Assembly: GCA_038851755.1 (NCBI GenBank)
Contig: JAWCKR010000020.1
Coordinates: forward strand, 1-23,036
Reading direction: 5' to 3'
Length of the DNA stretch: 23,036 nucleotides
From: Candidatus Hadarchaeales archaeon
Lineage (GTDB): Archaea > Hadarchaeota > Hadarchaeia > Hadarchaeales > WYZ-LMO6
Shown: positions 1 through 19,330 of the stretch, piece after piece
How positions within the stretch are numbered: the first letter of the stretch is position 1
Layout: the number at the start of each line of letters is the position of its first letter
Translations under genes and position numbers: made by a program
Notes under the pieces: model-generated
Database searches by the model: none
Seen by the model: only the letters and a program-made list of their open reading frames with translations
Told to the model about the DNA's origin: nothing

Positions 1-882
1 AACGAGCCGGGGGGCTTCCCCGACGGCTACATCTGCGACTTCATGCAGGCGGAGAGGGACCTCCCCGCCCGCAGGTTCCTGGAGGTGGCCCAGGAGGACG
101 AGGAGGAGGCCCTGAAGTACTCCCGCGCCATGCAGGAGGGAATAGGGGGAATAGCGGCCGTGATAGACAACGTGCTGTGGCTGGGCTTCTACATGAGCGG
201 GGGAATAGGCTTCTCCAACACCGTGGCCTCGGCCGCTTACTCCGAGGTGATGAACGAGATCTCCATGGAGCTCATAGAGCTCTCCCACCGCTACATGCAG
301 GGGGTCAGGAAGGTACCCATCCGCTGGGACACCGTGAGGACGATGGTGAACTCAATCGTGCAGTACGCCATGGAGAGCTACGAGAAGTTCCCCACCCTCA
401 CGGAGTTCCACTGGGGAGGGGCCCACAGGGTCTCCGTGATAGGCTCCATAGCCGCTTCATCGGCTGCCATGCTCACGGGGAGCTCCACCATGGGATTGAT
501 GGCAGCCCACTACGCCGTGGCCTTCGCCATGAAAGAGGGCTGGCTCAGGACGGGATGGGCGGGGCAGGAGGTCCAGGACCACATAGGCCTTCCCTACCTG
601 TGCAGCTTCAGACCTGAGGAGGGAAACCTGACGGAGCTGAGGGGGCTGAACTACCCCATGCAGTCCTACACCGCTGCCCACGGGGCCATCAGGGGTGCCG
701 CTAACTACGCGGCCATGATAGGGAGGGGAAGTTCCTGGTGTCTCAGCCCCATCGTGAAGGTGGCCTTCGCCGATCCCCACCTGGTGTTCGACTTCAAGCA
801 ACCGAAGCTCTGCATCGCCAAGGCGGGGATAAGGCAGTTCATGCCGGCCGGGGAGAGGGACCCGGTGCTTCCGCCCCACTGA
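1..882 (+). CDS. mcrA: Methyl/alkyl-coenzyme M reductase alpha subunit, divergent Acr-type (5'-truncated by window edge)
   Basis: Frame 1 is open from base 1: NEPGGFPDG, WLGFYMSGGIGF, HWGGAHR, RTGWAGQEVQDHIG, LRGLNYP, VKVAFADPHLVFDF, FMPAGERD. These align in order with McrA motifs NEPGG, WLGSYMSGGVGF, HFGGSQR, RLGFFGYDLQDQCG, RGPNYP, KVAFAD, F-PAGER. Confidence 0.96.
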   Translation, partial: NEPGGFPDGYICDFMQAERDLPARRFLEVAQEDEEEALKYSRAMQEGIGGIAAVIDNVLWLGFYMSGGIGFSNTVASAAYSEVMNEISMELIELSHRYMQGVRKVPIRWDTVRTMVNSIVQYAMESYEKFPTLTEFHWGGAHRVSVIGSIAASSAAMLTGSSTMGLMAAHYAVAFAMKEGWLRTGWAGQEVQDHIGLPYLCSFRPEEGNLTELRGLNYPMQSYTAAHGAIRGAANYAAMIGRGSSWCLSPIVKVAFADPHLVFDFKQPKLCIAKAGIRQFMPAGERDPVLPPH

Positions 883-891
883 GGTGCGAGC

Positions 892-1479
892 ATGGGCAAG
901 AGCCTGCCACCCCTTAAGGAGATGTATCCCAAGTTCGCGGAGGAGTTCGAGAGGACCAAACCTCCGCCAGTCCTGGAGAAAGTCACCCCGGAAGCCCTTC
1001 CTCCCCCGAGCATGTGTCTCCCTCGCCCTGACGGTTGGTGGAGGCAGCCTCCTTACTCCAAGTGGATTCAGGACAGGGGGAGGGAACCAACGGCTTACGA
1101 GCTCTTCATGGATTTCATCATAGGAAGGGCGATTTCCAGTCCGAAAGCCATGGAGCTGGCGAGTTCTGCGCCCACCCGCCTAATCGTGTATGAGATCGAG
1201 CATCCCCAGAGGGGCACCGAGTTCGTGAGGATGTTCCTGAACCCTACTCAGGTGGTGGAGGGACCTCCTGAGGAGGAGCCCGACCTGTGGATCAAGATGG
1301 GGTACTACGACTTCGTTCCTGTTCTGGGGGGGGAGATAAGTGTCTTCAACGCGGTGTACGAGGGTAGGGCCAACATCATAGGCAACACCACGGCGGGACT
1401 CGACCAGTACGACGTGATGACGGCCATCTTGGGGTTCGAGATTCCTCGCCCGCGGTGCTGGCCCCGGGGACATCCCTGA
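892..1479 (+). CDS. SCP2 (sterol carrier protein-2)-like domain protein with Pro/Trp-rich N-terminal extension
   Basis: RBS GAGGTG (881-886) overlaps the mcrA stop. C-terminal PDLWIKMGYYDFVPVLGGEISVFNAVYEGRANIIGN matches the SCP2 pattern (A/P)D-x-x-I...F..L.G.......A...G...I.G. Confidence 0.7.
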   Translation: MGKSLPPLKEMYPKFAEEFERTKPPPVLEKVTPEALPPPSMCLPRPDGWWRQPPYSKWIQDRGREPTAYELFMDFIIGRAISSPKAMELASSAPTRLIVYEIEHPQRGTEFVRMFLNPTQVVEGPPEEEPDLWIKMGYYDFVPVLGGEISVFNAVYEGRANIIGNTTAGLDQYDVMTAILGFEIPRPRCWPRGHP

Positions 1480-1480
1480 T

Positions 1481-2929
1481 TCAGGTCCCCCCGGTCTTCA
1501 GCCTTTCCCTCATCTTCTTGTACTCTATGAGTTTGGAGTAGGCCATTCCTGCATCCTCGGGGGTGAAGTAGACGGGTATACGGTGCTTCCTGAGGAGTTT
1601 GACGGGCCTGGATTTGTCAAGGGGTTTGAGGGCCACGGCGAAGACCGTCTTCCCCCTCCGGTTAAGGGCTATCAACCTTTTGATGAGGGGCAGCTGGACC
1701 TCTCTAACATAAACCTTCCTCAGCTCCCTGTCGAGGAACCTGGTGGCGTAGGCATCCAGCCCCCCGAGGACAATCAGCCCACCAGCCTCCCACTTTTCTA
1801 TCACCTTGAGGATTTTGAACTCCAAGGAGGGATCCAGCTCGGCCACCGTGTCTATCGGATTCCCCTTGCTCCAGTAGGGGGGCATAAAGGAGTTCATCTC
1901 CTCTAGGAGGTGGGGAGGGGGCGGGGCGACCTCCACCAGGTCTTCCCGACAGGCGTCGGTGGCGGCCACCCCCCAGCCTCCTCCCCTCGTGAGGATGATC
2001 ACTTGGTTGTTCTTGGGGAGGGGCTGTTCGAGGGCCATGGCCACCTTCAGCAGCTCCTCCGTGCTCTCTACCTCCACCACTCCGGCTTGCCTGAAGACCC
2101 CGCTGTACACCTGCCTGGACCCGGAGAGGGAGCCCGTGTGGGATTTGGCAGCCCTGCTCCCAGCCTGGGTCTTTCCCACCTTGAGGGCCACGATAGGCTT
2201 CGTCGGGCTCGTCTTCCTCGCCACCTCAAAGAACTTCCTCCCGTTTTTTACCCCCTCTATGTAGGTGAGGATGACCCTGGTGGACTCTCTCTCCCTCAGG
2301 AGCTCTATCAGATCCTCGCACCTGAGGAAGGCCTCGTTTCCCGTGCTCACGAAGACGTCGAAACCAATGTGGTAGTAGGTTCCGCGATCCAGGAGCTGGG
2401 TCCCCAGGTTCCCGCTCTGGGAGAGGAAAGAGACATTTCCCTTCAGGGGCTTCACGGAGGCCATGAGGGCGGAGAGGCTGGAGGTGGCCGAGAATACTCC
2501 CATGCAGTTCGGTCCCACGAAGGGCAGGCCCTCCTCCTCTGCGGTTCTCACCAGTTCTTCCTCCATTTCCTCACCCTCTCTTCCCGTTTCTCTGAAGCCC
2601 GCAGAGATTATCACCGCTGACTTCACCCCCCTCTCCGCGCACTCCCTGAAGAGGGAGGGAACGGTTTTGGCCGGGGTGACGATGAGGGCTAGGTCGGTCT
2701 CCTCCGGAACCTTCGGGTAAGCCTTGAGCCCCATGAGGGTTTCCTCGTTTGGGTTCACGGGGTAGACCTCACCCTTGAAGCCCCCCTCCACCACGTGCTT
2801 CAGGATGATGCTTCCCCACTTGATGGGGGAGCGGGAGGCTCCAATCACTGCCACCGACTTCGGGTCTAAGAGATAGCGCAGGTTTTCGAGAGTTCTTTTG
2901 GAGAGCTCTCCCGACCTCCTTGAGGTCAT
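1481..2929 (-). CDS. acdA: Acyl-CoA synthetase (ADP/NDP-forming), alpha subunit
   Basis: PKSVAVIGAS, YPVNP, GPNCMG, SQSG, STGNEA, KVGKT..G.RAAKSHTGSL (phospho-His) and NPID motifs; no ATP-grasp beta domain; GGGTGA RBS upstream. Confidence 0.93.
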   Translation of the reverse strand: MTSRRSGELSKRTLENLRYLLDPKSVAVIGASRSPIKWGSIILKHVVEGGFKGEVYPVNPNEETLMGLKAYPKVPEETDLALIVTPAKTVPSLFRECAERGVKSAVIISAGFRETGREGEEMEEELVRTAEEEGLPFVGPNCMGVFSATSSLSALMASVKPLKGNVSFLSQSGNLGTQLLDRGTYYHIGFDVFVSTGNEAFLRCEDLIELLRERESTRVILTYIEGVKNGRKFFEVARKTSPTKPIVALKVGKTQAGSRAAKSHTGSLSGSRQVYSGVFRQAGVVEVESTEELLKVAMALEQPLPKNNQVIILTRGGGWGVAATDACREDLVEVAPPPPHLLEEMNSFMPPYWSKGNPIDTVAELDPSLEFKILKVIEKWEAGGLIVLGGLDAYATRFLDRELRKVYVREVQLPLIKRLIALNRRGKTVFAVALKPLDKSRPVKLLRKHRIPVYFTPEDAGMAYSKLIEYKKMRERLKTGGT

Positions 2930-3014: not shown

Positions 3015-3485
3015 GTGCCCCTGGTACTGACGAGGGAATGGTTCGAGAGCATCAAGGAAGCTTGGAACTCCGACCCCTCGAACATAAAGAGCCTGGAAGG
3101 GGCGAGCGAAAGGATCCTCTGGACGGTGGAAGAGCTCCCGCTCTCCAAGCTTTCCCCGGAGATGGAGAAATCCATCTTGGAGGGCGGGATGATCGACGAG
3201 GCTCTCTTCAAGAAGGCCAAGGAGACGGACAGGGTGAATCTCCTGCTGGGGTGGGAGGGGGGAAAGCTGGTGGACTTCAGGCCCGCGAGGGAAGGAGAGG
3301 CCCATACGGCGATGATGAAAGGGAAGTATTCCGTCTTCGAAAAGATAAAGACGGGCGAGGACTTCCTGTGGGCCACGATGGACAGGGAGATAGAGTTCAG
3401 GGGGAGGATGTTCGAGTTCACGAGGAGATTGGACGGATACACCAAGTTCACGCTCATCATGGTATCAAAAACGGATCTGGTGTGA
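3015..3485 (+). CDS. SCP2-like domain protein
   Basis: EWFESIKEAWNSD N-terminus and AHTAMMKGKYSVFEKIKTGEDFLWATMDREIEFRGRM resemble archaeal SCP2 proteins; GTG start placed for a leaderless transcript. Confidence 0.62.
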   Translation: MPLVLTREWFESIKEAWNSDPSNIKSLEGASERILWTVEELPLSKLSPEMEKSILEGGMIDEALFKKAKETDRVNLLLGWEGGKLVDFRPAREGEAHTAMMKGKYSVFEKIKTGEDFLWATMDREIEFRGRMFEFTRRLDGYTKFTLIMVSKTDLV

Positions 3486-3495
3486 GGTGAGAAGG

Positions 3496-4968
3496 ATGGA
3501 AACGATGGAGGAAAGGAGCGCCAAGCAGAAGGCGGAGTGGGAGGAATGGATCAGGCACATGGGACTGGACAAGATTTGGCAGTATCTCAGCTCCATCAAC
3601 CCCTTCCCTGGTCAGACTCCCCTCAGCCTCGAGATTTTCTCCACCATGCCCGTTTGGAGGCACACCTTCAAGCATCTGGGCATGACCCCTGAGAGATGGC
3701 AGAGGCTTAAGTACGAGAACTTCGTGGAATGGTCCTACCGCATAGACCAGGCGGTGGAGACCTCGAACAGGCTGTTGAAGAACCCACCTTCTAGGGAGGA
3801 GCTCTACCACATGGACAACCTGTGCTACCTGAGCCACCCCCCGGCCTACCTCTGCAGGTCTGACGTGGGAAGGACCACCTGTCAGATGCTTTACGGTAAG
3901 TACGCCACCGTGGAGTACGTGCATGTGGATGACTTTACCCGTGAAGCTTACTGGATCCTGGGATACCACAACGAGGACGGCTTGCCCGTTCACCGGTGGC
4001 TCTTGGGTGCCTCCAAGGACATCTCCCAGTACTTCGACGAGGAGGACGAGAAGTGCTTCCTCACCACCACGGACAAATGGACAGGGGCCCCCAACAAGGA
4101 GGAGCTGGACGACAGGCTGAACCGCAGGCACCTCAGGACGGGGGTGAAGGTGAGGGACGTGCCCAGGTACTACTGGGACCCCTACGACTGGGGGATGGGG
4201 GTGAGGGACGTGATCATGGACATGCGCACCGAGCTCTTCTCCAAGTGGCTCCACGCCACCCTTTACATCTCCGGAGTCTCGGCTTACATCAGCACCATCG
4301 CCCAGAACGCCCTGATGAGCAGCGAGTTCTTCCTCTACGTCTACTACGGTCTGAACACGGCCGCGCTGGGGGTCAGGTACAACCTCTTCTCCTATGTGCC
4401 CCTGCCGCCCATCCTCAGGACCCTGCTGGGCCTCACCCAGGAGACCTTCGTGAAGAGGATGAGCGAGCTCTTCCTCGGCGGTTACAACACCATCCATAAG
4501 TACGCCTGCAGCGAGAAGAAGATCCCCAACCTCTTCAAGATCAGGAAGTTCCACTGGGAGCACGGCCAATTTTATCCCCATGTGAGAGGAATCCTTCCGC
4601 CCTTCGTCCTGGCGAGGGCCATTCCGCCCTCGCTGGAGCCCATCAACCTCAGGCAGTACCTGGAAACTCCCCCGAGCAAGGAGTTCCTCGAGGTGCTGGA
4701 GAGTGAGGGAGGCCTGAACAAGGAGACGGGTCAGTTGCCCTCCATAGAGGAAACGGGAAGGTTCCACTTCCTTTTCGATCCATCCGTGGAGCCCCTGCAG
4801 GCCAAGGACTTCCCGCCCTTCGACCCCAACAAGGGCCAGATCTGGCCCTTCGACATCACTAGGGAGAAGGTGGAGATCATGGTGGAGGAGGGCTACGACG
4901 GCTCTGGGAAGAACCTCGAGTATTACAGCAAGCTGGCGGACAAGAAGATGGGGAAGAAGGTGGACTGA
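3496..4968 (+). CDS. Hypothetical soluble protein, ~490 aa, Trp/Tyr/His-rich
   Basis: Long ORF with strong C/G third-position bias. RBS GAGGTGA (3484-3490) overlaps the upstream stop, favouring ATG 3496 over GTG 3487. No family recognised and no evident TM segment. Confidence 0.88.
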   Translation: METMEERSAKQKAEWEEWIRHMGLDKIWQYLSSINPFPGQTPLSLEIFSTMPVWRHTFKHLGMTPERWQRLKYENFVEWSYRIDQAVETSNRLLKNPPSREELYHMDNLCYLSHPPAYLCRSDVGRTTCQMLYGKYATVEYVHVDDFTREAYWILGYHNEDGLPVHRWLLGASKDISQYFDEEDEKCFLTTTDKWTGAPNKEELDDRLNRRHLRTGVKVRDVPRYYWDPYDWGMGVRDVIMDMRTELFSKWLHATLYISGVSAYISTIAQNALMSSEFFLYVYYGLNTAALGVRYNLFSYVPLPPILRTLLGLTQETFVKRMSELFLGGYNTIHKYACSEKKIPNLFKIRKFHWEHGQFYPHVRGILPPFVLARAIPPSLEPINLRQYLETPPSKEFLEVLESEGGLNKETGQLPSIEETGRFHFLFDPSVEPLQAKDFPPFDPNKGQIWPFDITREKVEIMVEEGYDGSGKNLEYYSKLADKKMGKKVD

Positions 4969-4983
4969 GTCCCTCAGGCTCGC

Positions 4984-5550
4984 CTAGTCTTTTAGGAGCT
5001 GGGAGACCTCCATCATGGCCGAGGAAACTCTCATGGCCAAGGGGATGCTCCCATCGGTCCTTATCAGCTGCTTGAAGAAGGCTTCGGTGGGGTCTCTCTC
5101 CCCCAGGAACACCTCTATCATGGCCTGGGTATAGCCTTTCACGGTGAGGTCGGGCTTCTCCAGCAGTCCTGATCCTCCGGACAGTCTTCCATCCTTTATC
5201 TGGAAGTGGCCCCTCATAGGGCTGTCTATGGCTTCCATGTTCACCGCGACGTTCCCCGCCCTCTGGAGGGCTTCCTTCACGTCAGGGTTCCTCTCCGCCA
5301 GTATGCTTATCCCCTCCCAGAGGATGTCCATGAACCTAGCGGAGGCTTCCGGATCTTCCTTTACGAACTGAGTGACGTTCACCTCCTTCAATCTCTTCGC
5401 CAGCCTGGGCACGAGGTCGGGAACCAGCTCCAGGAGTTTGGAAACCCCGAACTCCTTTATCCCGTCTAGGAGAGGAAGGAGATTCCCCTTCAGCTGGTCA
5501 AGGGGGAGTTGGAAGGCTTCTTCAATGGTTTTCCTCAGATCCTCTCCCAC
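4984..5550 (-). CDS. SCP2-like domain protein with N-terminal helical domain (~188 aa)
   Basis: C-terminal HFQIKDGRLSGGSGLLEKPDLTVKG...VFLGERDPTEAFFKQLIRTDGSIPLAM is SCP2-like. Start revised to GTG 5550, about 22 nt after TTATAAA (5579-5573); the ORF-track extension to 5991 overlaps aor. Confidence 0.78.
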   Translation of the reverse strand: MGEDLRKTIEEAFQLPLDQLKGNLLPLLDGIKEFGVSKLLELVPDLVPRLAKRLKEVNVTQFVKEDPEASARFMDILWEGISILAERNPDVKEALQRAGNVAVNMEAIDSPMRGHFQIKDGRLSGGSGLLEKPDLTVKGYTQAMIEVFLGERDPTEAFFKQLIRTDGSIPLAMRVSSAMMEVSQLLKD

Positions 5551-5572
5551 GCCTTCTCTTTTGGGATGGAGA

Positions 5573-5637
5573 TTTATAACCTTTTTGGGAGCCGCGCGAA
5601 AAAAAAGAGACAAGTTTTTAGCGCGGGGAGAGGGTGA
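5573..5637. promoter_or_regulatory. Divergent promoter region (SCP2 / aor) with inverted repeat
   Basis: TTATAAA (-, 5579-5573), TTTTTA (+, 5615-5620), RBS GGGTGA (5632-5637); dyad CGCGCGAAAAA (5593-5603) / TTTTTAGCGCG (5615-5625). Confidence 0.55.
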
Positions 5638-5643
5638 TGGATA

Positions 5644-7587
5644 GTGAACTGGTTCGGTTACGCGGGTTCGATTCTGAGAGTAGACCTGAGCAGGGGAGAG
5701 GTGGAGAAGGAGGAACTCACAGAGGACCTTGTGAAGAGGTTCTTGGGGGGACTGGGGATAAACCTGAAGCTTTACAGGAGGGAGGCCTCCCCCCTTTCCG
5801 ATCCCCTTTCTCCCTCCAACCCCCTGGTGCTCGGAGTGGGCCCGCTGGTGGGAACGGAAGTGCCTGGAGCCACCAAGATGGTGGCCACCACGAAGTCTCC
5901 CCTCTTTTCTAGGGGTGGAAAGCACTTCGTGGACGGTGCCGTGTGCGGTGGCAGGCTGGGGGCGCAGCTGAAGAGGGCGGGGTACGACCATGTGGTGATC
6001 GTGGGAAGATCGGAGAGGCCGGTCTATTTGAGCCTGGAGAGGGGCCGTGCGGAGCTCCTGGAAGCCTCACACCTCTGGGGAAAGGACACCTACGAGACCA
6101 CGGACCTGTTGCTCAGGGAGCATCCTGGAGCAGGGGTTGCGGTGATCGGAAGGGCGGGTGAGAAGGGAGTGGTGCATGCCATGGCCATAGTGGACAAGGT
6201 GGCCACCTTGGGCAGATTCGGGGTTGGTGCGGTGATGGGTTCCAAGAACCTGAAGGCGATAGTGGCGAAGGGTGAAGGGAAGGTAGCCGTGGCTAGAGGG
6301 GAGGAGCTCTCCGAGCTGGTGGGGAAGTGGAGGGAGGACATAGAGAGGAACCCCCTCCTGCCCCAGTGGAGGGTGCTGGGCATCATGGCGGGCTGGCCCG
6401 CCCATTCCCCTCTGGTCAGGGAGGGTGTGTGGGAATACTCAAAGTGGAACGAGCTCTACGGCCCGGAGAGATGGGTGGAGTTCCGGGGGGGGAAGAACTC
6501 CTCCTGCTGGGGTTGCCCCATGGGCTGCAGGGTGGACTTTCACATAAAAGAAGGGAGGCACGCGGGGCTCTCCACCTTCACGGGGTCCTACATGCTTCCG
6601 GCGAGGGTGGGGCAAAGGCTGGAGCTGGAGGACCCCAGGGATGCCGTGGCCCTCCTTGACCTGTGCAACAGGGAGGGGATGTGCTACTTCACCACCAGCC
6701 AGCTGGTGAACTGGGTCACCAGGCTCTCCAAAGAGGGAAAGCTGAAGGAGAGGCTGGGGAGGGACTTTGAGACTTATCTCAGGCTCTTCGGGGAGATCGC
6801 GGGAAGGGAGGGCTTCGGAGGGATTCTCTCGGACGGGTGGTACCCGGCTTCGGAGAAGCTTGGCGCGGATCCGGATGAGTTCGAGGAGGGCACGGGCCTT
6901 TTCAGGGGGGCCGACGCCATCCAGGATGCCAGGTTCACGAGGCTCCATCCCCAGGCCTTCTCCCACCTCACCTCGCCCAGGCCTCACCACGGTGGGACCC
7001 AGTCCCTTTACACCGTTCCGATGGTGGAGCCACAGGTGCTGAGGGAGGTGGACGCCAGGGACATGGGTCTTTCGGAGGAGGAGCTGAACAGGGTGTTCGG
7101 GGGGCCCATGAAGTTCAACCCGGCGAGGTACGCCAGGTACGCGGAGGACAGGATGGCGGTCTACAACAGCCTGGGCACCTGCATCGTGCACGCCCTGTGG
7201 GGCTTCCTGGGAGTGAGGTACCTCAACCTGAAGCTGGCGGCGGAGCTGTATTCCCTGGCCACCGGGAGGGAGCTGGGGGTGGCGGAACTCCGAAGGACGG
7301 GAGAAAGGATCTTCACCTTCTGGAAGATGGTGAACGCGGAGGAGGGACTGGGGAAGGAGGACTACAGATGCTCCAAGATCTGGCTGAAGCCCAGGAGGAC
7401 ACCCGAGGGGGAGGTGGTTCTGAGGGACTACTATGGGGAGGTGGTTCTGTCCGGGGAGGACATGGAAAACCTCCTGAGGGATTACTACCACGAGAGAGGC
7501 TGGGATGAGTCCACGGGCCTTCCCACCCCTGAGAAGCTGAGGGAACTCGGGCTGGGGGAGGAAGGCTTCAGGCTTCCCTCCCCCTGA
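5644..7587 (+). CDS. aor: Tungsten-type aldehyde:ferredoxin oxidoreductase family protein (divergent)
   Basis: GYAGSILRVDLS, FLGGLG, KSP, LKRAGYD, GRFGVGAVMGSKNLKAI, CWGCPMGC plus NSLGTC ([4Fe-4S] ligands), YYHERGWDESTGLPT..KLRELGL. Confidence 0.93.
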   Translation: MNWFGYAGSILRVDLSRGEVEKEELTEDLVKRFLGGLGINLKLYRREASPLSDPLSPSNPLVLGVGPLVGTEVPGATKMVATTKSPLFSRGGKHFVDGAVCGGRLGAQLKRAGYDHVVIVGRSERPVYLSLERGRAELLEASHLWGKDTYETTDLLLREHPGAGVAVIGRAGEKGVVHAMAIVDKVATLGRFGVGAVMGSKNLKAIVAKGEGKVAVARGEELSELVGKWREDIERNPLLPQWRVLGIMAGWPAHSPLVREGVWEYSKWNELYGPERWVEFRGGKNSSCWGCPMGCRVDFHIKEGRHAGLSTFTGSYMLPARVGQRLELEDPRDAVALLDLCNREGMCYFTTSQLVNWVTRLSKEGKLKERLGRDFETYLRLFGEIAGREGFGGILSDGWYPASEKLGADPDEFEEGTGLFRGADAIQDARFTRLHPQAFSHLTSPRPHHGGTQSLYTVPMVEPQVLREVDARDMGLSEEELNRVFGGPMKFNPARYARYAEDRMAVYNSLGTCIVHALWGFLGVRYLNLKLAAELYSLATGRELGVAELRRTGERIFTFWKMVNAEEGLGKEDYRCSKIWLKPRRTPEGEVVLRDYYGEVVLSGEDMENLLRDYYHERGWDESTGLPTPEKLRELGLGEEGFRLPSP

Positions 7588-7598
7588 GGGTCCGCCAT

Positions 7599-8045
7599 TC
7601 AGGAAGGCTCTATGAGCTTGAAGACATCCATGGGCACGGTGGAGCGCATGATGGCGTTGGCGATGAGGGAGATGATCTCGAAGTCCATCTTCTCTGCCCC
7701 CTCCACCACTTGTATCTTTCCCTCCACCACCGCGTTGGAGAGTTCCTCCTGTCCGGAAATCACCCTCTTCCAGGTTTCCCACTCCCCCTCCAGCACCACA
7801 TCCGCTTTCAGGGGAGTGTTGGCCACTTCGGTTTCGGTCTTACCCTCCGCGATGTGGATGCGCATGTAGGCATCCTCCATTCCCTTCTCCTTGAAGGAGG
7901 GGGGAAGCCTTATCACGTTTAAGAGCGAAAAGTCCTTCCCCTTGGTCTTCTCTTGGAACTGTGGGTCCGCTTCTATGTTGCTGAGCAAGACGTTGAGAAA
8001 GCTCTTCATTCCCGCTAGAAAGAGTTCGGCCTCCAATCCAGGCAT
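7599..8045 (-). CDS. SCP2-like domain protein
   Basis: IHIAEGK...ADVVLEGEWETWKRVISGQEELSNAVVEGKIQV is a typical SCP2 C-terminal pattern; TTAAATAT (8073-8066) about 20 nt upstream. Confidence 0.8.
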   Translation of the reverse strand: MPGLEAELFLAGMKSFLNVLLSNIEADPQFQEKTKGKDFSLLNVIRLPPSFKEKGMEDAYMRIHIAEGKTETEVANTPLKADVVLEGEWETWKRVISGQEELSNAVVEGKIQVVEGAEKMDFEIISLIANAIMRSTVPMDVFKLIEPS

Positions 8046-8110: not shown

Positions 8111-8683
8111 TCAGCCCTTTTTCTTGGAGGGCTGGGTCTCTTCTACAATCTTCCTTGCCGCGTTCTTTGCGGCTTCCAGCAGGGGCTGGTTGCAGAGGGA
8201 CACCGGACAGGAGGAGATGGGAATCCTCACGATTTTTTGCAGGATGGTTGCTACCACGGGGCCGCACACTATGGCCTTGGCCCCCTCCTGCTCGGCGTTG
8301 AGGGCAGCGACGATGGCGTCCTCGATGCTGGAGGCCCCGTATCCCTTGATCTTGATTTTTAGGTTGCCGGCGCTCACGTGGGAGGTGGTGAGGGCGTCGA
8401 GGGAAGAGCGTGAGGCGATGAGGGCGATGAAGGGTTCACCCCCCTGGGAACTTTCCAGGCTCTTCAGGGTCCTCAGGATGTCCCTGAGGGTGGAGAGCCT
8501 GGGATTGGGCCTGTGCCCGGAGATGATCTTGTAGAGGGAGCTTTCGGAGACGCCGGAGAGCTTGCTGAACTCCTTCATGTCCAGATGGAACTCCTTCAGC
8601 ACCCTCTTCAGGGTCTCCCTGAACTTCTCGTCGGACTCCAGGGCGGAGTTCAGGACCTCCTCCCACTTCTGGAAACCCACCAT
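8111..8683 (-). CDS. XRE/Cro-family HTH transcriptional regulator with C-terminal alpha/beta ligand-binding-like domain
   Basis: MKEFSKLSGVSESSLYKIISGHRPNPRLSTLRDI is an HTH_3 pattern; C-terminal EDAIVAALNAEQEGAKAIVCGPVV resembles an archaeal regulator family. Confidence 0.88.
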   Translation of the reverse strand: MVGFQKWEEVLNSALESDEKFRETLKRVLKEFHLDMKEFSKLSGVSESSLYKIISGHRPNPRLSTLRDILRTLKSLESSQGGEPFIALIASRSSLDALTTSHVSAGNLKIKIKGYGASSIEDAIVAALNAEQEGAKAIVCGPVVATILQKIVRIPISSCPVSLCNQPLLEAAKNAARKIVEETQPSKKKG

Positions 8684-8691
8684 CGGCTAAC

Positions 8692-8726
8692 TTTCCTCTT
8701 TGTCCATAAAAAGCACACTATTTTAG
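8692..8726 (+). promoter_or_regulatory. Putative operator plus TATA upstream of the symporter, overlapping the regulator's own promoter
   Basis: TTTCCTCTTTGTCCATAAAAAGCACAC (8692-8718) matches the reverse complement of 12678-12704 at 22/27 positions; it is followed by TATTTTAG. Confidence 0.6.
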
Positions 8727-8759
8727 AGGGGAGGGTGGAGAGAGCCGGGAGGGAGAACC

Positions 8760-10109
8760 TTGGAGATAGGCTGGTCGCCGGTCTTTGACTTCGTCCTCCT
8801 CAGCCTTCTCCTCCTTGTCGCCACCATCCTTCGCCTGAGGCTGAGGGTTCTCCAGAGGCTGCTCATGCCAAACGCTCTGGTGGCAGGTTTCCTGGGGTTT
8901 CTCTTGGCCCAGGTCTTCCGGGTGGTTTCCTTCCACCACCTGGAGGACATGATCTATCACCTCCTCAACCTGACCTTCGCCGCGCTGGCGCTGGGGATGG
9001 TCACGAGGGGGAGGAGCTACGGGCAGGCGGCCAGCACGGGCATCCTCATGTCCTTCGTCTTCTCCCTCCAGTTGCTGGTGGGCTTTCTCCTGACCTTTTT
9101 CCTGATGGCCACCTTCTGCCCGGATCTCTTCCCCACCTTCGGCTCCCTCATGGCCGTGGGTTACGCCTCCGGCCCTGGTCAGGCCTTCTCCTTCGGCTCT
9201 TCCTGGGAAGGAAGGGGGTTCGCCCACGGGGGAGAGGTGGGTTTGATCTTCGGGGCGGTGGGCTTCCTCTGGGCCTACGGGGTGGGGACGGTCTGGCTCA
9301 ACTGGGGGGTCAGGAGGGGAAGGGCAGTCCTTCTGAGGGACCTCCGGGCGGTGCCGGAGGAGGTCTGGACGGGCATCCTCCCCAGGCGCAGGAGGAAAGC
9401 TTTCGGGGAGACCGTTTCCTCCTCGGAGGCGGTGGACACCCTCAGCCTCCAGGTGGCCCTCTGCGGTTTGGTCTACGCCTTTGCTTACTTGGTGGTGAGG
9501 CTCCTTTCCCTGAGCTCCGAAACCGCCTGGGGGGCCACCTTCGTGGTCACGGTGATGGTGGGGATGGCGGTCAGGAAGGTCATGGAGAGGACGAGGGTCG
9601 ACCACCTGATCTCCCCGGGGGTTCAGAGGCATGTAGCGGGGGTATGCGTGGATTACGCCGTGGCGGCCTCCGTCGCCGCCATCTCCCTGCCCGCCCTCAG
9701 GATGTACGCCCTCCCCCTCATCCTGATTGCCCTGGCAGGCGGGTTGGTCACGGTGCTGGCCTTCCTCTGGCTGCCCCACAGGGTGTGGAGGGACTACAGG
9801 TTCGAGAGGACGCTCGTCACCTACGGCACCCTCACGGGGACGATGGACTCCGGCATAGCCCTCTGCAGGGTGGTTGACCCGGAGCTCCGCACCCCAGCGG
9901 TGGAGGACTACGTGAGGGGCATGCCTCTGATGTTCCTTCTCATCCTCCCCCTCTATGGTCTTCTCTTCCTTCCCCTCAGCGGTTATGGTTCGGAGAGGGC
10001 CTTCCCCTTCTACTCCCTTACCCTCGTGGGTCTCCTCCTCTCCCTCCCCCTCTTCCTCCTGATGTGGAGGAGGATGGGCCTCTGGGTGCCAAGGCGCTCT
10101 CAGAGGTAG
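8760..10109 (+). CDS. Sodium/glutamate symporter (GltS/ESS) family transporter
   Basis: About 12 hydrophobic segments; LQRLLMPNALVAGFLG, GYASGPGQA..FG, YGTLTGTMDSGIAL.RVVDP re-entrant-loop motifs; TTG start after GGAGGGAG. Confidence 0.85.
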   Translation: MEIGWSPVFDFVLLSLLLLVATILRLRLRVLQRLLMPNALVAGFLGFLLAQVFRVVSFHHLEDMIYHLLNLTFAALALGMVTRGRSYGQAASTGILMSFVFSLQLLVGFLLTFFLMATFCPDLFPTFGSLMAVGYASGPGQAFSFGSSWEGRGFAHGGEVGLIFGAVGFLWAYGVGTVWLNWGVRRGRAVLLRDLRAVPEEVWTGILPRRRRKAFGETVSSSEAVDTLSLQVALCGLVYAFAYLVVRLLSLSSETAWGATFVVTVMVGMAVRKVMERTRVDHLISPGVQRHVAGVCVDYAVAASVAAISLPALRMYALPLILIALAGGLVTVLAFLWLPHRVWRDYRFERTLVTYGTLTGTMDSGIALCRVVDPELRTPAVEDYVRGMPLMFLLILPLYGLLFLPLSGYGSERAFPFYSLTLVGLLLSLPLFLLMWRRMGLWVPRRSQR

Positions 10110-10858
10110 GGCACTTCCTCCCTGAGGAGGTCCACCACTTCTTTCCTGAGCCTTACCAGCTCCCTACTCAGCTTGTCTCGCGGGCGGGGGAGTTCCACCC
10201 GGAGCACCTCCTTCACCCTGGCGGGGCGGGAAGTGAGCACAATCACCCTGTCGGAGAGGTACACCGCCTCCTCAACGTTGTGGGTCACGAAGAGGATGGT
10301 CTTTTTCACCTCCCACCAGATCTTGGTGAGGTCCTGGTGGAGAATCCAGCGGGTCTGCGCGTCCAGGTTGGCGAAGGGTTCATCCATCAAGAGCAGCTCC
10401 GGGTCCACGGCGAGGGCTCTGGCTATGGCCACCCTCTGCTTCATCCCTCCCGAGAGCTGATGGGGGTAGCAGTGTTCGAAACCCGCCAGACCCACCATTT
10501 CCACCAGTTCCTTCACCCTTTCCCCACCCTCCATGCCCCTCACCTCTCTCCCGAACTCCACGTTCTCCCTGACCGTCCTCCAGGGAAAGAGAGAGTCTTC
10601 CTGGAAAACGAAGCCCAGGCGGTGTCTGGAAGGGTCGGGGGGTCTCCCGTCTATGGTGACCTTACCCGAGGAAGGTCTCTCCAGACCCCCGACCAGCTTG
10701 AGGAGGGTGGTCTTCCCGCACCCCGAGGGACCCACCACGGAGACGAACTCTCCCTCCCTCACCCCAAAGGAGACTCCTCTGAGGACCTCCAGTCTTCCTT
10801 CCCCCGTGGTGAAGCTCTTGTGCAGGTCCTCCACCTTCACCTTGGTCTTCACGGGCAC
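10100..10858 (-). CDS. ABC transporter ATP-binding protein, NitT/TauT/Ssu family
   Basis: GPSGCGKT, VFQE..LFPWRTV, YPHQLSGGMKQR, LLLMDEPF, FVTH, V.LPRPRD. Confidence 0.95.
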   Translation of the reverse strand: MPVKTKVKVEDLHKSFTTGEGRLEVLRGVSFGVREGEFVSVVGPSGCGKTTLLKLVGGLERPSSGKVTIDGRPPDPSRHRLGFVFQEDSLFPWRTVRENVEFGREVRGMEGGERVKELVEMVGLAGFEHCYPHQLSGGMKQRVAIARALAVDPELLLMDEPFANLDAQTRWILHQDLTKIWWEVKKTILFVTHNVEEAVYLSDRVIVLTSRPARVKEVLRVELPRPRDKLSRELVRLRKEVVDLLREEVPYL

Positions 10859-10867
10859 GGTTCCACC

Positions 10868-11656
10868 TCACAGGGAGACCTCTTTCCTCCACACGAAGAG
10901 ACGCCTTTCCGTCTGGAGGAGGATTTCGTTCATGAGGAGTCCTACGATGCCTATGGCGATCATCCCTGCCACGATCATGTCCACCCTCAGGAGCTCGGAG
11001 TACTTCAGGATGAGCCTGCCCAGACCCACATTCTCGCCACCTATCATTTCCGCCGCCACGATGCACATCCAGCCGACTCCCAGCCCCACCCTCATTCCGG
11101 AGGTGATTTCGGGCAGGGCGCTGGGTATCACCACTTTCTTCACCGTGGTCCTGTTTTTGGCCCCGAAGCTCTTGGAGACCTCCACCAGCGTGGGGTTGGT
11201 TCTCTTGATGCCGCTCATGGTGTTGATGAGGATGGGGAAGAAAGCACCCAGCCATATCACGAAGAGGTAGCGCCAGTATCCGGAGAGGAGGAGGATGACC
11301 AGAGGTATCCAGGCGAGGGGAGGGATGAAGCGAAGGGGCTCCAGCACGGGCTTGGAGGAACGGTATACTCCCTCCCTCAGCCCCATCAGGATGCCCAAGG
11401 GTATGGCGGTGAGGCAGGCCAGGGCGAACCCCCCCAGTACCCTGAGGAGGCTGTGGAGGGCGTGTTCGTGTAGCCTGATTCCTTCCACGTCCCCCCTGGT
11501 CAGGAGGGTGGAAAAGGAGCGGAGCACCTCCACAGGACCTGGGAAGAAGGAGGAGCGGGTGATTCTGGAAGAGAGCTCCCAGAGGAGGAGGACGGCTGCC
11601 AGCAGGAGGGAGGCATACAGCACCTCCCTGGAGCGCAGGGTCTTCCAGACTTTCAT
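10868..11656 (-). CDS. ABC transporter permease, NitT/TauT/Ssu family
   Basis: SLLRVLGGF, IPPLAWIP, FFPILINT..G, KSFGA...VVIPSALP.I..GMR, W..IVAAEM. Confidence 0.94.
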   Translation of the reverse strand: MKVWKTLRSREVLYASLLLAAVLLLWELSSRITRSSFFPGPVEVLRSFSTLLTRGDVEGIRLHEHALHSLLRVLGGFALACLTAIPLGILMGLREGVYRSSKPVLEPLRFIPPLAWIPLVILLLSGYWRYLFVIWLGAFFPILINTMSGIKRTNPTLVEVSKSFGAKNRTTVKKVVIPSALPEITSGMRVGLGVGWMCIVAAEMIGGENVGLGRLILKYSELLRVDMIVAGMIAIGIVGLLMNEILLQTERRLFVWRKEVSL

Positions 11657-11663
11657 TCAAACC

Positions 11664-12647
11664 CTACTTCAGGGCTTCCTCTAAAAGGGTGAGGTCGAGA
11701 GCGCCCTCCACGAAGGCATCCACGTTTTCCACTCCCGTGATGGTCCCGGTCTCTATGAGAAGCCTGGCGAAGGCTTTGATGCTCTCCACGTCGGGGTTGA
11801 CGTTCCAGACCATCCTCTTCCAGGACTCCTGAACCACGGCCGCGGGTTTGCCCGTGCGGGAGGAGAAAATCCCCATGGCCCGGTTTTCGTTCTCCTGCAC
11901 CAGCTGCATGGCCTTCACATGGGCCTTGACGATGGAGAGGGCGAGCTTCCTGTCCTCCCTGAGGAGCTTCCCTGAGACGTAGAGGACGCAGCACTGGTGG
12001 TTGGGGAGGATGTCGTGGGAGGTGTAGACCACCTTTCCCGTGCCGTTCACCACCGCCTCGGCGCAGAAGGGCTCCCAGGCTATGTACCCGTCTATCTCCC
12101 CCTTCTCCAGGGCGAGGGGGAGGGTGGAGGGACCGGAGTAGTGCTTGCGGTTGAAGGTGATCCCCAGCTGGTTCTCCACCATGGAGAGCATGGCGTTCTG
12201 GATGGTGCCAAGGCCGGGGGTCCCCACCGTCTTACCGTTCAGGCCCTCCACGTTTTCGATCTCTGGACGGGCCACCAGCGCCGAACCCTCCAGGTTGGCC
12301 GAAGCCACGATCTTGAAGTCGGCCCCCTGCGAGAGGGCCCTGAGGGCAGGAACCGCTCCCACGTATCCGGCATCCAAGCCGCCGGAAACGAACTCGGTCA
12401 TCTGCGCCGGACCGTTGACGTATTCGAGGTACCTGAACCTGAACCCCGGTCCAGCCTCCTCCTCAAAGAGTTCCAGCTCCCTTCCCACGAAACACCCTAT
12501 CTGGTGGATATCACCCACCAGGTAGCCCATCCTGACGGTGGTGACGGCCTCTCTGCCGGCCTGGTACCCCAGACGGTAGCTGGCGTAGGAGGCCAGGGAG
12601 AGAACGACCAGGAAGGAGAGGAGGATACCCAGCATCTTGCCCGTCAT
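11664..12647 (-). CDS. ABC transporter substrate-binding protein, sulfonate/nitrate/taurine-like
   Basis: N-terminal membrane anchor; VRMGYL, GLDAGYVG..P, L.GKTVGTPG.GTIQ, GEIDGYIAWEP, HQCCVL. Confidence 0.9.
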   Translation of the reverse strand: MTGKMLGILLSFLVVLSLASYASYRLGYQAGREAVTTVRMGYLVGDIHQIGCFVGRELELFEEEAGPGFRFRYLEYVNGPAQMTEFVSGGLDAGYVGAVPALRALSQGADFKIVASANLEGSALVARPEIENVEGLNGKTVGTPGLGTIQNAMLSMVENQLGITFNRKHYSGPSTLPLALEKGEIDGYIAWEPFCAEAVVNGTGKVVYTSHDILPNHQCCVLYVSGKLLREDRKLALSIVKAHVKAMQLVQENENRAMGIFSSRTGKPAAVVQESWKRMVWNVNPDVESIKAFARLLIETGTITGVENVDAFVEGALDLTLLEEALK

Positions 12648-12815: not shown

Positions 12816-13451
12816 ATGCACATACCGGATGGCTTTTTGACCCTCGAGGTGTGGGCCCCCCTCTGGGCCCTGGCCGCGGGCGCCCTGGCCTTTTCCACCT
12901 GGCGCGTGAACAGGAGGCTGGAGGACAGGCACGTGCCCCTGCTGGGGGTGCTCGCGGCCTTCGTCTTCGCCGTTCAGATGCTCAACGTGCCCGTGGCGGG
13001 GGGCACCAGCGGGCATGTGGTGGGAGGGGTGCTCATCGCCCTCTTCGTGGGCCCCCTGGCGGGCTCCCTGGTGATGGGCTCCATCCTGGCCGTGCAGGCC
13101 CTCTTCTTCCAGGACGGGGGCATAACAGCTCTGGGGGCCAACGTGGTGAACATGGGGCTGATAGGAACCATCCTGGGATACTGGCTCTACCGGCTGGTAT
13201 CGGGGGCCGTTGGAGGAAGAGAAGGGAGGCTGGCGGGGGCAGGAGTGGCGGGGTGGGTGACGATCGTGCTGGCGTCCGTCGCCTGCTCCCTGGAGCTGGC
13301 GGCCTCGGGCACCTCCCCGCTCGGGGTGGTCCTCCCCGCCATGGTGGGGTATCACGTGGTGATAGGGGTGGTGGAGGCCGTGGCCACGATGGCGGTGGTC
13401 GGCTTCGTCTCCCGGGTGAGGCCCGACCTCCTCGAACTGCCCAAGCTGTAG
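12816..13451 (+). CDS. cbiM: ECF-type Ni/Co transporter substrate component NikM/CbiM
   Basis: N-terminal MHIPDG, GTSGH..GG, QALFFQDGGITALGAN, H..IG..EA. Confidence 0.95.
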   Translation: MHIPDGFLTLEVWAPLWALAAGALAFSTWRVNRRLEDRHVPLLGVLAAFVFAVQMLNVPVAGGTSGHVVGGVLIALFVGPLAGSLVMGSILAVQALFFQDGGITALGANVVNMGLIGTILGYWLYRLVSGAVGGREGRLAGAGVAGWVTIVLASVACSLELAASGTSPLGVVLPAMVGYHVVIGVVEAVATMAVVGFVSRVRPDLLELPKL

Positions 13452-13459
13452 GTGAGGGG

Positions 13460-13738
13460 ATGAGGCTCAGGTGGTGGATGGTGGGGCTGGTGGTCTGCCT
13501 CTTCATGGCGGGAGTCCTCTCCCTCTTCGCCTCCTCCTCTCCCGATGGCCTGGAGAGGGTGGCGGAGGATCACGGCTTCGCGGAAAAGGCGAAGGAGTTT
13601 CTTTCCTCTCCCTTCCCGGATTACTCCGTTCCGGCTTTGGGAGGGGCCCTCTCCACTTCCCTGGCGGGACTCCTGGGTGTCGTCCTGATCCTCCTCCTCA
13701 CCTTTTTCTGGGCCAAGGCCCTCAGGAAGAAGAAATGA
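13460..13738 (+). CDS. PDGLE-domain Ni/Co transport component (NikN-like)
   Basis: MRLRWWMVGL...ASSSPDGLERVAE...PFPDY, two TM helices; GGTGA RBS before ATG 13460 (3' part of the 12851..13738 ORF). Confidence 0.9.
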   Translation: MRLRWWMVGLVVCLFMAGVLSLFASSSPDGLERVAEDHGFAEKAKEFLSSPFPDYSVPALGGALSTSLAGLLGVVLILLLTFFWAKALRKKK

Positions 13739-14490
13739 AGCACCACTTCCTGGACCAGTACAGCGATCGCGCGAGTCCCCTCCACTCCCTAGACCCCAGG
13801 GTCAAGATCCTGACCTTTCTCTCCTTCGTGGTGGTGGTAGTCCTCACCCCCCTGACCCCCCCCTCCCGCTTCCTCTTTTACGCCCTCCTCCTCTTCTCCC
13901 TCGTCCTCCTCTCCAGAGTCCCCCCCGGCTTCCTCCTGAAGAGATCCGCGGTGGTCCTCCCCTTCGTGGGCCTGGTGGCGGTGGGCCTGCCCTTCCTGGG
14001 CGGCAGCGGTGGCTCCTACAACCTGGGACCTTTCCACGTGACCCACTCCGCCCTCCTCATCTTCGCCAACGTTCTCCTCAAGTCCTGGTTCTCCGTGATG
14101 GTGATGGGTCTTCTCGTGTCCACCACCCCCTTCACCCGCCTCCTGCGGGGCTTCCAGTCCCTCGGTCTTCCAGCCCTCTTCACCACCATCCTCTCCTTCA
14201 TGTACCGGTACCTCTACCTCCTCACGGACGAGTTTGAGAGGATGACCAGGGCCAGGGACTCGAGGGCCTGGAGGATGGGCAGGCTGGAGAGGATGAGGGT
14301 CACCGGGAACATGGTGGGCGCGGCCTTCCTGAGGAGCTACGAGAGGGGTGAGCGGGTGTACCTGGCCATGCGGGCGAGGGGCTTCGACGGGGGGATCAGG
14401 GTGATGCGCGAGCCGAGGATGGGGGGGCCGGACTTCCTCTTCCTCTCCCTCTTCTTCCCCCTCCTCCTCCTTCCTGCGGTGATGGTATGA
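13735..14490 (+). CDS. cbiQ: ECF transporter T component NikQ/CbiQ
   Basis: SPLHSLDPRVK, TT.F..L, FMYRY...L.DE..RM..A..SR, FLRSYERGERVY.AM.ARG; ATGA overlap with the upstream gene. Confidence 0.94.
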   Translation: MKHHFLDQYSDRASPLHSLDPRVKILTFLSFVVVVVLTPLTPPSRFLFYALLLFSLVLLSRVPPGFLLKRSAVVLPFVGLVAVGLPFLGGSGGSYNLGPFHVTHSALLIFANVLLKSWFSVMVMGLLVSTTPFTRLLRGFQSLGLPALFTTILSFMYRYLYLLTDEFERMTRARDSRAWRMGRLERMRVTGNMVGAAFLRSYERGERVYLAMRARGFDGGIRVMREPRMGGPDFLFLSLFFPLLLLPAVMV

Positions 14491-15194
14491 AGGCGGTGGA
14501 GATAAGGAACCTGCGTTACACCTACCCCGACGGAACCAGGGCCCTGAGGGGTGTGAACCTGGAGGTGGAGGAAGGAGAAAGCGTCTTCCTGATGGGTCCC
14601 AACGGATCGGGCAAGTCCACCCTGCTCCTCCACCTCAACGGGCTCCTTCTCCCCCAGAGCGGGGAGGTGAAGATTTTCGGGCTGGACCCCAGGAACGGAG
14701 TGGGGGAGATAAGGAGGAGGGTGGGATTGGTCTTCCAGGACCCAGATGACCAGCTCTTCATGCCGACCGTCTTTGAGGACGTGGCCTTCGGCCCTCTGCA
14801 CCTGGGACTGGGAGAGAGGGAGGTCAGGAGGAGGGTGAAGAAGGCGCTGGAGGAGGTGGGGATGAGGGGGTTCGAAAGGAGGAGCCCCCAGCACCTCAGC
14901 TACGGGGAGAGAAAGAGGGTGGCCATAGCCACCGTTCTCTCCATGGACCCGGAACTTCTCGCCCTCGACGAGCCCACGCTGGGCCTGGACCCCTGGATGA
15001 GGAGAAAGCTGCTCTCCCTCCTCCGCAGGCTGAGGAGGGGGAGGACCCTTCTGATGGCGGGGCACGACGGGGAGCTGATGGAGCTGTGCGACCGTGCGTA
15101 CCTGCTTAGGGGGGGCAGGGTGGAGAAGGAAATGGATCCCTGCAGGTGGAGGGAGGAAATAGAAATAGGCGGGGGGAAAAGGGAGTATCGGTAG
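14487..15194 (+). CDS. cbiO: ECF transporter ATPase NikO/CbiO
   Basis: GPNGSGKST, VFQDPDDQLF, LSYGERKR, LDEPT; ATGA overlap with cbiQ. Confidence 0.94.
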   Translation: MKAVEIRNLRYTYPDGTRALRGVNLEVEEGESVFLMGPNGSGKSTLLLHLNGLLLPQSGEVKIFGLDPRNGVGEIRRRVGLVFQDPDDQLFMPTVFEDVAFGPLHLGLGEREVRRRVKKALEEVGMRGFERRSPQHLSYGERKRVAIATVLSMDPELLALDEPTLGLDPWMRRKLLSLLRRLRRGRTLLMAGHDGELMELCDRAYLLRGGRVEKEMDPCRWREEIEIGGGKREYR

Positions 15195-19287: not shown

Positions 19288-19330
19288 CTTCCCCCACCTT
19301 TTAAATCCCCGCAACTTTAGAAGGATTTGG

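Follow-up and report, generated by a model that had tools for sequence, protein, structure and literature searches.

A gene for the alpha subunit of alkyl-coenzyme M reductase at the start of a Hadarchaeota contig and the conserved gene families beside it

The window analysed here is the whole 23,036-nt stretch of contig JAWCKR010000020.1, and the feature under study occupies positions 1–882 of its forward strand. This segment encodes the C-terminal half of AcrA, the catalytic, F430-binding subunit of alkyl-coenzyme M reductase (Acr), and not a canonical McrA. The source organism is a thermophilic member of the Hadarchaeota in the GTDB family WYZ-LMO6 (Ca. Cerberiarchaeaceae), probably of the genus that includes Ca. 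Melinoarchaeum. We estimate a probability of approximately 0.85 that this AcrA belongs to a Hadarchaeota Acr activating long n-alkanes. The finding as such is already known, and the window adds one member to the Acr-bearing Hadarchaeota: such archaea have been described from metagenomes, hexadecane cultures followed in 2024, and the substitutions at position 400 and at the coenzyme site were treated in a 2022 review.

Identity and placement of the acrA fragment

Frame 1 is open from the first base of the window to a TGA stop at 880–882 and encodes 293 residues. This product matched the C-terminal domain of Pfam MCR_alpha with an E-value of 4.9e-23, its 82.5 bits exceeding the cut-off of 25. 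In HMMER searches, it also matched 18 distinct solved alpha chains of methyl-coenzyme M reductase (MCR) and ethyl-coenzyme M reductase (ECR), from 5n28_A (E 4.7e-47) down to 3sqg_A (E 4.5e-26). The HMMER alignment begins at approximately residue 276–279 of a McrA of approximately 550 residues; the contig start cuts acrA, and some 310 residues of the N-terminus fall outside the contig. The fragment scored 173.4 bits against TIGR03256, the McrA equivalog of NCBIfam, which is below the cut-off of 767.75. A full-length orthologue with 94% identity, found at a locus of Hadesarchaea WYZ-LMO6 (QNVD01000218.1; hereafter L001), likewise remained below this cut-off with 510.3 bits. The AcrB encoded at L001 was also below the McrB equivalog cut-off (408 vs. 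516), and its AcrG passed its own. The L001 alpha subunit matched MCR_alpha_N with an E-value of 1.4e-97 and retains the axial Gln, His257 and Arg271.

A search for longer proteins yielded 406 relatives among 2611 candidates. Among the best 120 of these 406, identity to the fragment was 94% for P0002/P0003, 74% for Bathyarchaeota BA2, 67% for BA1, 51%–57% for Hodarchaeota and Helarchaeota and 48% for a Syntropharchaeales protein. The remaining relatives listed (P0042–P0121) shared 33%–39% identity, and 78 of them (P0044–P0121) carry the canonical McrA motifs; identity to methanogen McrAs was 34%–39%. An exhaustive search of representative proteins returned 49 at E ≤ 0.001, the best with 49% identity. 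Scanning species-representative genomes revealed four loci, namely L001 (94% AcrA identity over 293 residues), L002 of Hadesarchaea S4B3_HD70 (87%), and L003 and L004, which are two contigs of one metagenome-assembled genome (MAG) of an uncultured archaeon (98% and 95%, respectively, over the last 110 residues). At the DNA level, identity was 85.6% over 2.9 kb for L001 and 89% over 3.7 kb for L003. L001 is a sequence distinct from the window at the species level. The GC content of the window (61.7%) was near that of L001 (62.6%) and differed from that of L002 (49.2%), and the genus therefore differs from that of L002, with which the window nevertheless shares ten collinear genes.

Phylogenetic trees were inferred from 294 C-terminal columns, both as quick searches with Shimodaira–Hasegawa-like approximate likelihood ratio test (SH-aLRT) support. 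The larger tree comprised 68 rows: the window, three locus translations, P0002–P0043, P0122–P0123, 13 of the 78 canonical McrAs and seven divergent sequences, L003 and L004 having been left out as too short. In this tree, the window fell within a clade of seven rows (SH-aLRT 96) together with both WYZ-LMO6 copies and S4B3_HD70. This clade was nested in one of 16 rows that included BA1/BA2 (100), which in turn lay in an Acr clade of 48 rows (100, branch 0.70), opposed to 20 canonical or divergent rows. A tree of 57 rows without most of the long branches gave the same placement, again with a support of 100 for the Acr clade, whose branch length was 0.64–0.70 across both trees. An earlier reading made from the sequence alone (hereafter, the sequence-only reading) had proposed a McrA/AcrA phylogeny as a check on its view of the gene as a McrA homolog with an unusual active site. 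That phylogeny places the window outside the canonical methane McrA clades and inside the Acr (‘Group IV MCR’) clade in both trees.

The orthologous loci also supply the context that the window lacks upstream. At L001, the orthologous acrA (5288–7099) is preceded by acrB (Pfam E 2e-97), acrG (E 4e-88) and X1, a paralogue of gene X described below, in the order acrB–acrG–X–acrA, and by a second acrA; these genes would lie off the contig in the window. Downstream of acrA, L001 resembles the window in having gene Y followed by a convergent acyl-CoA ligase gene.

Several side observations concern the acrA copies themselves. All five contigs (the window and L001–L004) begin inside an acrA gene, and both L001 and the MAG containing L003/L004 have two acrA copies with approximately 84% identity per acrB–acrG pair. 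Assemblies probably break at paralogous acrA copies. The presence of two alpha genes per beta–gamma pair might point to exchangeable alpha subunits.

Active-site motifs and their distribution in the Acr clade

Two alignments, one to 5n28_A by HMMER and one of 135 sequences by MAFFT, served for reading the motifs (Table 1). Positions follow M. marburgensis numbering, to which 5n28_A here stands at an offset of +2. For Phe330, Tyr333, Gly445, Asp450 and Cys452, we use what we take to be the established position numbers, which agree with this offset. Calibration of the numbering relied on three positions, Gln400 and Met480 in M. marburgensis and Trp429 in M. formicicus (PMC9118554).

Table 1. Features of the window: the acrA fragment with its motifs, and the genes downstream of it.
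Feature	Residues	Position (nt)	Strand	Basis
3' portion of acrA, encoding the last 293 residues of the alpha subunit of alkyl-coenzyme M reductase		1..882	+	Pfam, PDB chains, relatives, trees
Insert of 16–17 residues before the WLG motif, with an EDEEE run	20–44	58..132	+	HMMER gaps, anchor counts
GFSNTVASAAY vs. GFTQY-ATA(A/S)Y; Phe330 kept, Tyr333 to Thr or Val, one extra residue	70–80	208..240	+	HMMER, MAFFT
HWGGAHR vs. HFGGSQR; Phe396 to Trp, Gln400 (methyl-Gln site) to His	137–143	409..429	+	HMMER, MAFFT
RTGWAGQEVQDHIG vs. RLGF(F/Y)GYDLQDQCG; Phe443 to Trp, Phe444 to Ala, Tyr446 to Gln, Cys452 to Ile; Gly445 and Asp450 kept	183–196	547..588	+	HMMER, MAFFT
MQSYTAAH vs. NYAMNVGH; Met480 to Tyr, Asn481 to Thr, Val482 to Ala, His484 kept	220–227	658..681	+	HMMER, MAFFT
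Gene Y, 195 aa, predicted SCP2-fold domain at approximately residues 60–180		892..1479	+	Structure model, weak profile signals, synteny
ADP-forming acetate/acyl-CoA ligase alpha subunit, convergent with Y		1481..2929	-	TIGR02717, 431.7 bits (below the cut-off of 567)
Protein of 156 aa, without a known family, immediately upstream of X		3015..3485	+	Conservation in L002, L003
Gene X (X2 type), 493 aa, orphan family		3487..4968	+	Relatives, structure model, synteny
SCP2-domain protein; the listed open reading frame overlaps the AOR gene		4984..5991	-	SCP2, E 8.2e-08
Tungsten-type aldehyde:ferredoxin oxidoreductase (AOR)		5644..7587	+	AFOR_N, E 2.3e-65; AFOR_C, E 4.1e-52
148-aa protein, possibly SCP2-like (weak)		7599..8045	-	SCP2, E 0.02; both PDB matches SCP2, E ~0.4; conserved in L002
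Helix-turn-helix regulator		8111..8683	-	Family search

The fragment resembles the canonical McrAs of solved structure (5n28 from M. formicicus; 3pot and 5a0y from M. marburgensis) in its fold, C-terminal domain, Phe330, Gly445, Asp450, His484 and C-terminal PAGERD. In contrast, it differs from them not only in overall identity and in the insert but also at positions 333, 396, 399, 400, 441, 443, 444, 446–448, 451, 452 and 477–483. In the third motif, RTGWAGQEVQDHIG stands where canonical McrA has RLGFFGYDLQDQCG. All seven of the canonical residues Tyr333, Gln400, Phe443, Tyr446, Cys452, Asn481 and Val482, each present in 75–78 of the 78 canonical McrAs, are replaced. The partner of Tyr333 is Thr74 in the HMMER alignment or Val75 in the MAFFT alignment, and Tyr is absent in both; position 400 corresponds to His142 of the fragment. 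The distance between the anchors flanking the insert (residues 17–57) is 41 residues, compared with 25 in 77 of the 78 canonical sequences, giving an insert of +16, and the HMMER gaps add up to 17 (9 + 7 + 1). Seven of the 25 residues in the insert region are Asp or Glu, including the single EDEEE run.

The four motif changes described in the sequence-only reading, along with the additional residue, the loss of Tyr333 and the retention of Gly445 and Asp450, were all recovered in both alignments. Other parts of that description required adjustment. The insert that it had called acidic does contain 16–17 extra residues, but its acidity is moderate. The proposed loss of bulky aromatics applies to Tyr333, Phe444 and Tyr446, whereas Phe396 and Phe443 are replaced by Trp and Met480 by Tyr. 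Finally, the extensive remodelling of the active site is real but is a property of the whole clade rather than of this gene.

The latter point emerged from counts at 26 chamber positions in three groups of sequences: the 78 canonical McrAs (P0044–P0121), 31 relatives of the Bathyarchaeota/Hadarchaeota/Helarchaeota/Hodarchaeota type (P0002–P0032) and 13 other Acr-type sequences (P0033–P0043, P0122 and P0123); seven very divergent representatives were left out of the counts. Among the 31 relatives, Trp396, Trp443, Gln446, His451, Ser479 and Ala482 of the window were present in every sequence, and Ala399, His400, Thr441 and Ala444 were each present in 30. None of the canonical McrAs had Trp396, His400, Trp443, Ala444, Gln446, Ser479 or Ala482. 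These 78 sequences were invariant or almost so at all counted positions, with the canonical residue in all of them at positions 396, 400, 443, 479 and 482, Phe (62) or Tyr (16) at position 444, and Tyr (75) or Phe (3) at position 446. In total, the window residue was found in 0/78 canonical McrAs at 12 or more (at least 12) chamber positions.

The length differences were similarly distributed. The insert occurred in all 44 Acr sequences, with 40–42 residues between the anchors vs. 24–25 in canonical McrAs. A one-residue deletion in loop 239–246 was also present in 44/44 Acr sequences, including the L001 orthologue, and in 0/78 canonical sequences. The extra residue after position 332 was found in 31/31 relatives but in only 2/13 of the other Acr-type sequences and is therefore a marker of the sub-clade. 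Within the family, variation is slight: the motifs of the window differ from those of S4B3_HD70 only by V/I at 448, Y/F at 480 and T/S at 481, and the four motifs of L001 are alike apart from V/I, I/L, Y/F and T/S swaps. The substitutions and the loop deletion are thus a shared signature of the Acr clade and are not special to this sequence. In their review, Lemaire and Wagner (2022; PMC9118554) described Ile, His or Glu at position 400 in such MCR homologues and, on the basis of AlphaFold models, proposed that the deletion in loop 239–246 opens a cleft of 15–17 Å for mid- to long-chain alkanes.

Outside these motifs, the methyl-His site His257 is occupied by Ser in 18 of the 31 Acr sequences of the Bathyarchaeota/Helarchaeota type, and by His in L001, P0003, P0004, P0006 and P0008 (Hadarchaeota and BA1/BA2).

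Substrate range and alternative explanations

The long-chain substrate suggested in the sequence-only reading gained support from relatives in the WYZ-LMO6 family whose cultures contained hexadecyl-coenzyme M (CoM), and not from the argument of aromatic loss. In other words, it is orthology to studied organisms that carries the long-chain assignment; the motifs do not reveal chain length. Ca. Cerberiarchaeum oleivorans was enriched on hexadecane at 70°C, and hexadecyl-CoM was detected in the culture by comparison with an authentic standard (Benito Merino et al. 2024; PMC10811742). According to the same study, the MAG of this archaeon holds the sole Acr operon of that metagenome, and every Acr-bearing member of the Hadarchaeota belongs to the GTDB family WYZ-LMO6. 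Ca. Melinoarchaeum fermentans, which belongs to the same family, was enriched at 60°C, first on tetradecane and later on hexadecane, and hexadecyl-CoM and 1,2-13C-hexadecyl-CoM were found in its cultures (Yu et al. 2024; PMC11297162). Three acrA copies are present per MAG, and all acr genes are expressed at 179–852 fragments per kilobase per million (FPKM). In the supplement of that paper, acrA, a gap, acrB, acrG, a gap and acrA form genes 1, 3, 4 and 6 of one contig, which is the gene order of L001. The acrA of the window corresponds to gene 6, with FPKM values of 668.6 and 277.5 in two MAGs.

Together with AcrB, AcrG and F430, AcrA would form an (alpha–beta–gamma)2 enzyme. This enzyme would run the MCR reaction in reverse on long n-alkanes, converting an alkane and CoM-S-S-CoB (the heterodisulfide of CoM and coenzyme B) to alkyl-S-CoM and HS-CoB. 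Its substrates are likely C14–C16 and probably longer n-alkanes. The changed residues at positions 333, 396, 400, 443–446, 452 and 477–483 are predicted to line the CoM/CoB/F430 chamber and, together with the deletion in loop 239–246 seen in the orthologue, might admit a bulky alkyl chain. By orthology, this particular acrA copy probably carries out the hexadecyl-CoM reaction, and the individual residues may play the roles outlined here.

Several points weigh against this assignment. The window holds half of the alpha subunit, and the N-terminal features are taken from the orthologue with 94% identity. The case draws on evidence for this Acr clade at the level of cultures, and such evidence links the metabolite to an organism and not to one acrA copy; with three copies in Ca. 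Melinoarchaeum and two at L001, their roles may differ. The tie to Ca. M. fermentans consists of the GTDB family name and the gene order, and L002 is tentatively equated with the MAG of Ca. C. oleivorans partly because a single Acr-bearing MAG was reported (PMC10811742). The enlargement of the pocket, to which the alpha, alpha', beta and gamma chains all contribute, is a prediction from the residues. In addition, Acr relatedness does not neatly sort chain length in the Alkanophaga study (PMC10322722), in which an enzyme for C5–C15 alkanes is highly similar to an Acr that Syntrophoarchaeum expresses with C4.

An Acr whose natural substrates are short or medium alkanes (C2–C12), or whose range is very broad rather than specifically long, appears unlikely. 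It would agree with the occurrence of the motif set in BA1/BA2, Helarchaeota and Hodarchaeota sequences without assigned substrates, and with the single Alkanophaga Acr that covers C5–C15, for which flexibility is stated to grow with chain length (PMC10322722). Moreover, the alkanes fed were tetradecane and hexadecane (PMC11297162) or hexadecane at 70°C (PMC10811742). Nevertheless, the experimental links of the sub-clade are all to C16 in these two studies, and the cluster described below, with its three or four lipid-carrier genes of the SCP2 type, would suit a water-insoluble substrate. BA1 and BA2 themselves fall in the same fully supported sub-clade as the window and have the same motif signature; they differ from it in belonging to another phylum. 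As for the short end of the range, the ECR of Ca. Ethanoperedens thermophilum (7b1s) is likewise an Acr-type homologue (E 3.6e-42) acting on a non-methane alkane. Enzymes of this type keep (methyl-)Gln400 and have a Met axial ligand and insertions exclusive to ethanotrophs that form a gas tunnel of 33 Å (PMC9118554), whereas position 400 is His in the window and the axial ligand is Gln in its orthologue. An ethane-type ECR was accordingly rejected on the basis of position 400.

It is considerably less probable that the gene is a spare or inactive alpha paralogue standing outside the working enzyme, a situation that the two acrA copies per acrB–acrG pair at L001, the same layout in the Melinoarchaeum supplement and a third, lone acrA copy in that organism (PMC11297162) would allow. 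The 293-residue frame is intact, the fragment keeps Phe330, Gly445, Asp450 and His484, its orthologue has retained the axial Gln along with His257 and Arg271, and 87% identity has been held across two genera; furthermore, the positional counterpart, gene 6, is expressed at the FPKM values cited above (PMC11297162). The intact frame, the conserved catalytic-site residues and this expression also led us to reject a pseudogene. A canonical methane-forming or methane-oxidising MCR that has drifted unusually is the least credible explanation. The protein does belong to the same fold family, and its best PDB sequence matches are methanogen enzymes. However, a fully supported branch of considerable length divides it from the canonical McrAs, none of which shares its residues at 12 or more chamber positions, and the orthologue scored below both the McrA and McrB equivalog cut-offs. 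In addition, Ca. Melinoarchaeum has neither MTR nor a canonical MCR according to Yu et al. (PMC11297162). An Acr activating long n-alkanes therefore remains our preferred assignment for the fragment.

Conserved genes beside acrA and elsewhere in the window

The neighbouring genes are of more interest than the acrA finding itself, as two conserved, unannotated families inside or beside the acr genes are candidates for alkane delivery and for the step after alkyl-CoM. The first of them, gene Y, starts 9 nt past the acrA stop and has GGTG ahead of it. Y was found behind every acrA copy in L001–L004 (874–1485 and 7101–7694 in L001; approximately 985–1572 in L002). Its conserved N-terminal stretch, rich in Trp and Pro, precedes a domain that, judging from the structure model, has the SCP2 lipid-carrier fold, a five-stranded sheet and helices superposing on solved SCP2 proteins. 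The AlphaFold model was moderately confident, with a predicted local distance difference test (pLDDT) score of 67.6 and core blocks of 70–89. At E ≤ 0.001, Foldseek matched it to 40 PDB structures; ranks 1–20 were all SCP2-type, with target-normalised template-modelling (TM) scores of 0.54–0.71, and the matches included an SCP-2 from mosquito with a bound C16 fatty acid.

Sequence profiles gave weaker signals for Y. No Pfam or NCBIfam family was assigned, its score remaining below the Pfam SCP2 gathering score; three of nine relatives weakly matched Pfam SCP2 (best E 0.015), and eight of 11 matches of the Y profile to PDB sequences were SCP2-type (best E 0.02). In hhalign, comparisons of the Y profile with the 156-aa protein (probability 0.2%) and with the Pfam-SCP2 protein (1.3%) were not significant. 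A ‘hydrocarbon-carrier protein’ has been raised in PMC9118554 as speculation only. In the open-access library searched, no paper was found that joins SCP2 or sterol carrier protein with alkyl-coenzyme M reductase; Tables S4–S6 of PMC10811742 may list neighbouring genes, and the terms ‘SCP2’ and ‘sterol’ are absent from eight supplementary files of PMC11297162.

Gene X represents an orphan family. In L001 (3676–5250) and in L004, acrG and acrA flank its paralogue X1, which shares approximately 44% identity with it, and X itself recurs in L002 (3825–5300). Only 36 relatives were found among 5.8 billion proteins. Five of these bear taxon names, namely one from Bathyarchaeota BA2, two from Hadarchaeales and two source names of Ca. 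Methanoliparum that refer to one protein, P0192. The BA2 homologue (P0178, 67% identity) is on a contig equal in size to the McrA contig (154546), as is also the case for one uncultured contig (5470). These equal sizes suggest X–McrA linkage in BA2 and in the uncultured contig. No paper mentioning the BA2 locus tag of X was found in the open-access library searched. Neither Pfam nor NCBIfam assigned X to a family at thresholds as permissive as E 10, and its profile gave one chance-level match to PDB sequences (E 0.46). The AlphaFold model of X was confident (pLDDT 92, predicted TM score 0.92); a Foldseek comparison with solved structures nonetheless returned no match at E ≤ 0.001, and the best query-normalised TM score was 0.15. 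Atlas matches of X were below 0.9 and consisted of unrelated eukaryotic F-box clusters.

Both genes are embedded in a conserved neighbourhood. All ten genes tested occurred in the same order in L002 with 59%–87% identity, and the first five were also found in L003. The cluster comprising the 156-aa protein, X, the SCP2-domain protein, AOR and the 148-aa protein (3015–8045 in the window; 3345–8601 in L002) has kept its order across two genera. The start of the SCP2-domain protein is probably near 5560, its counterpart in L002 having 191 aa. The 156-aa protein had no Pfam or NCBIfam match and one chance-level PDB match (E 0.2), and its interpretation as an SCP2-like protein, lacking a family match and with the hhalign probability given above, was unsupported.

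We tentatively propose that the acr locus holds an unrecognised module for handling long-chain hydrocarbons, in which Y would act as a carrier and X, SCP2 and AOR would take part in a downstream step; at present, we regard this as a possibility more doubtful than probable. Y, which would be translationally coupled to every acrA copy, may pass an insoluble alkane to the reductase or remove hexadecyl-CoM. X may help to turn alkyl-CoM into a fatty acid or acyl-CoA, or to assemble this type of Acr. How a C16 alkane gains access to the buried nickel site has been described as an open riddle (PMC9118554), and PMC10811742 and PMC11297162 describe what follows alkyl-CoM as unknown or unconfirmed. A role for AOR in converting alkyl-CoM to acyl-CoA has been suggested in published work. 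In the available parts of PMC10811742 and PMC11297162, no mention was found of Y, X or a linkage between AOR and acrA.

Farther downstream, approximately 3 kb (8718–11660) contain long open reading frames in either orientation (forward, 449 and 469 aa; reverse, 353 and 332 aa) with no family match. The 449-aa frame is 62% identical to its counterpart in L002, and the forward strand is therefore probably the real one in this region. A radical-SAM protein on the reverse strand (18190–19314) gave weak, non-specific family matches and could not be identified as a known McrA-modifying enzyme. The window also encodes an ECF-type metal transporter on the forward strand (12816–15194), comprising CbiM (12816–13451), a PDGLE-domain protein (approximately 13451–13738), CbiQ and a CbiO ATPase; an NMT1-like binding protein is encoded upstream of it on the opposite strand (11664–12647). 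This transporter could supply nickel for F430, or cobalt.

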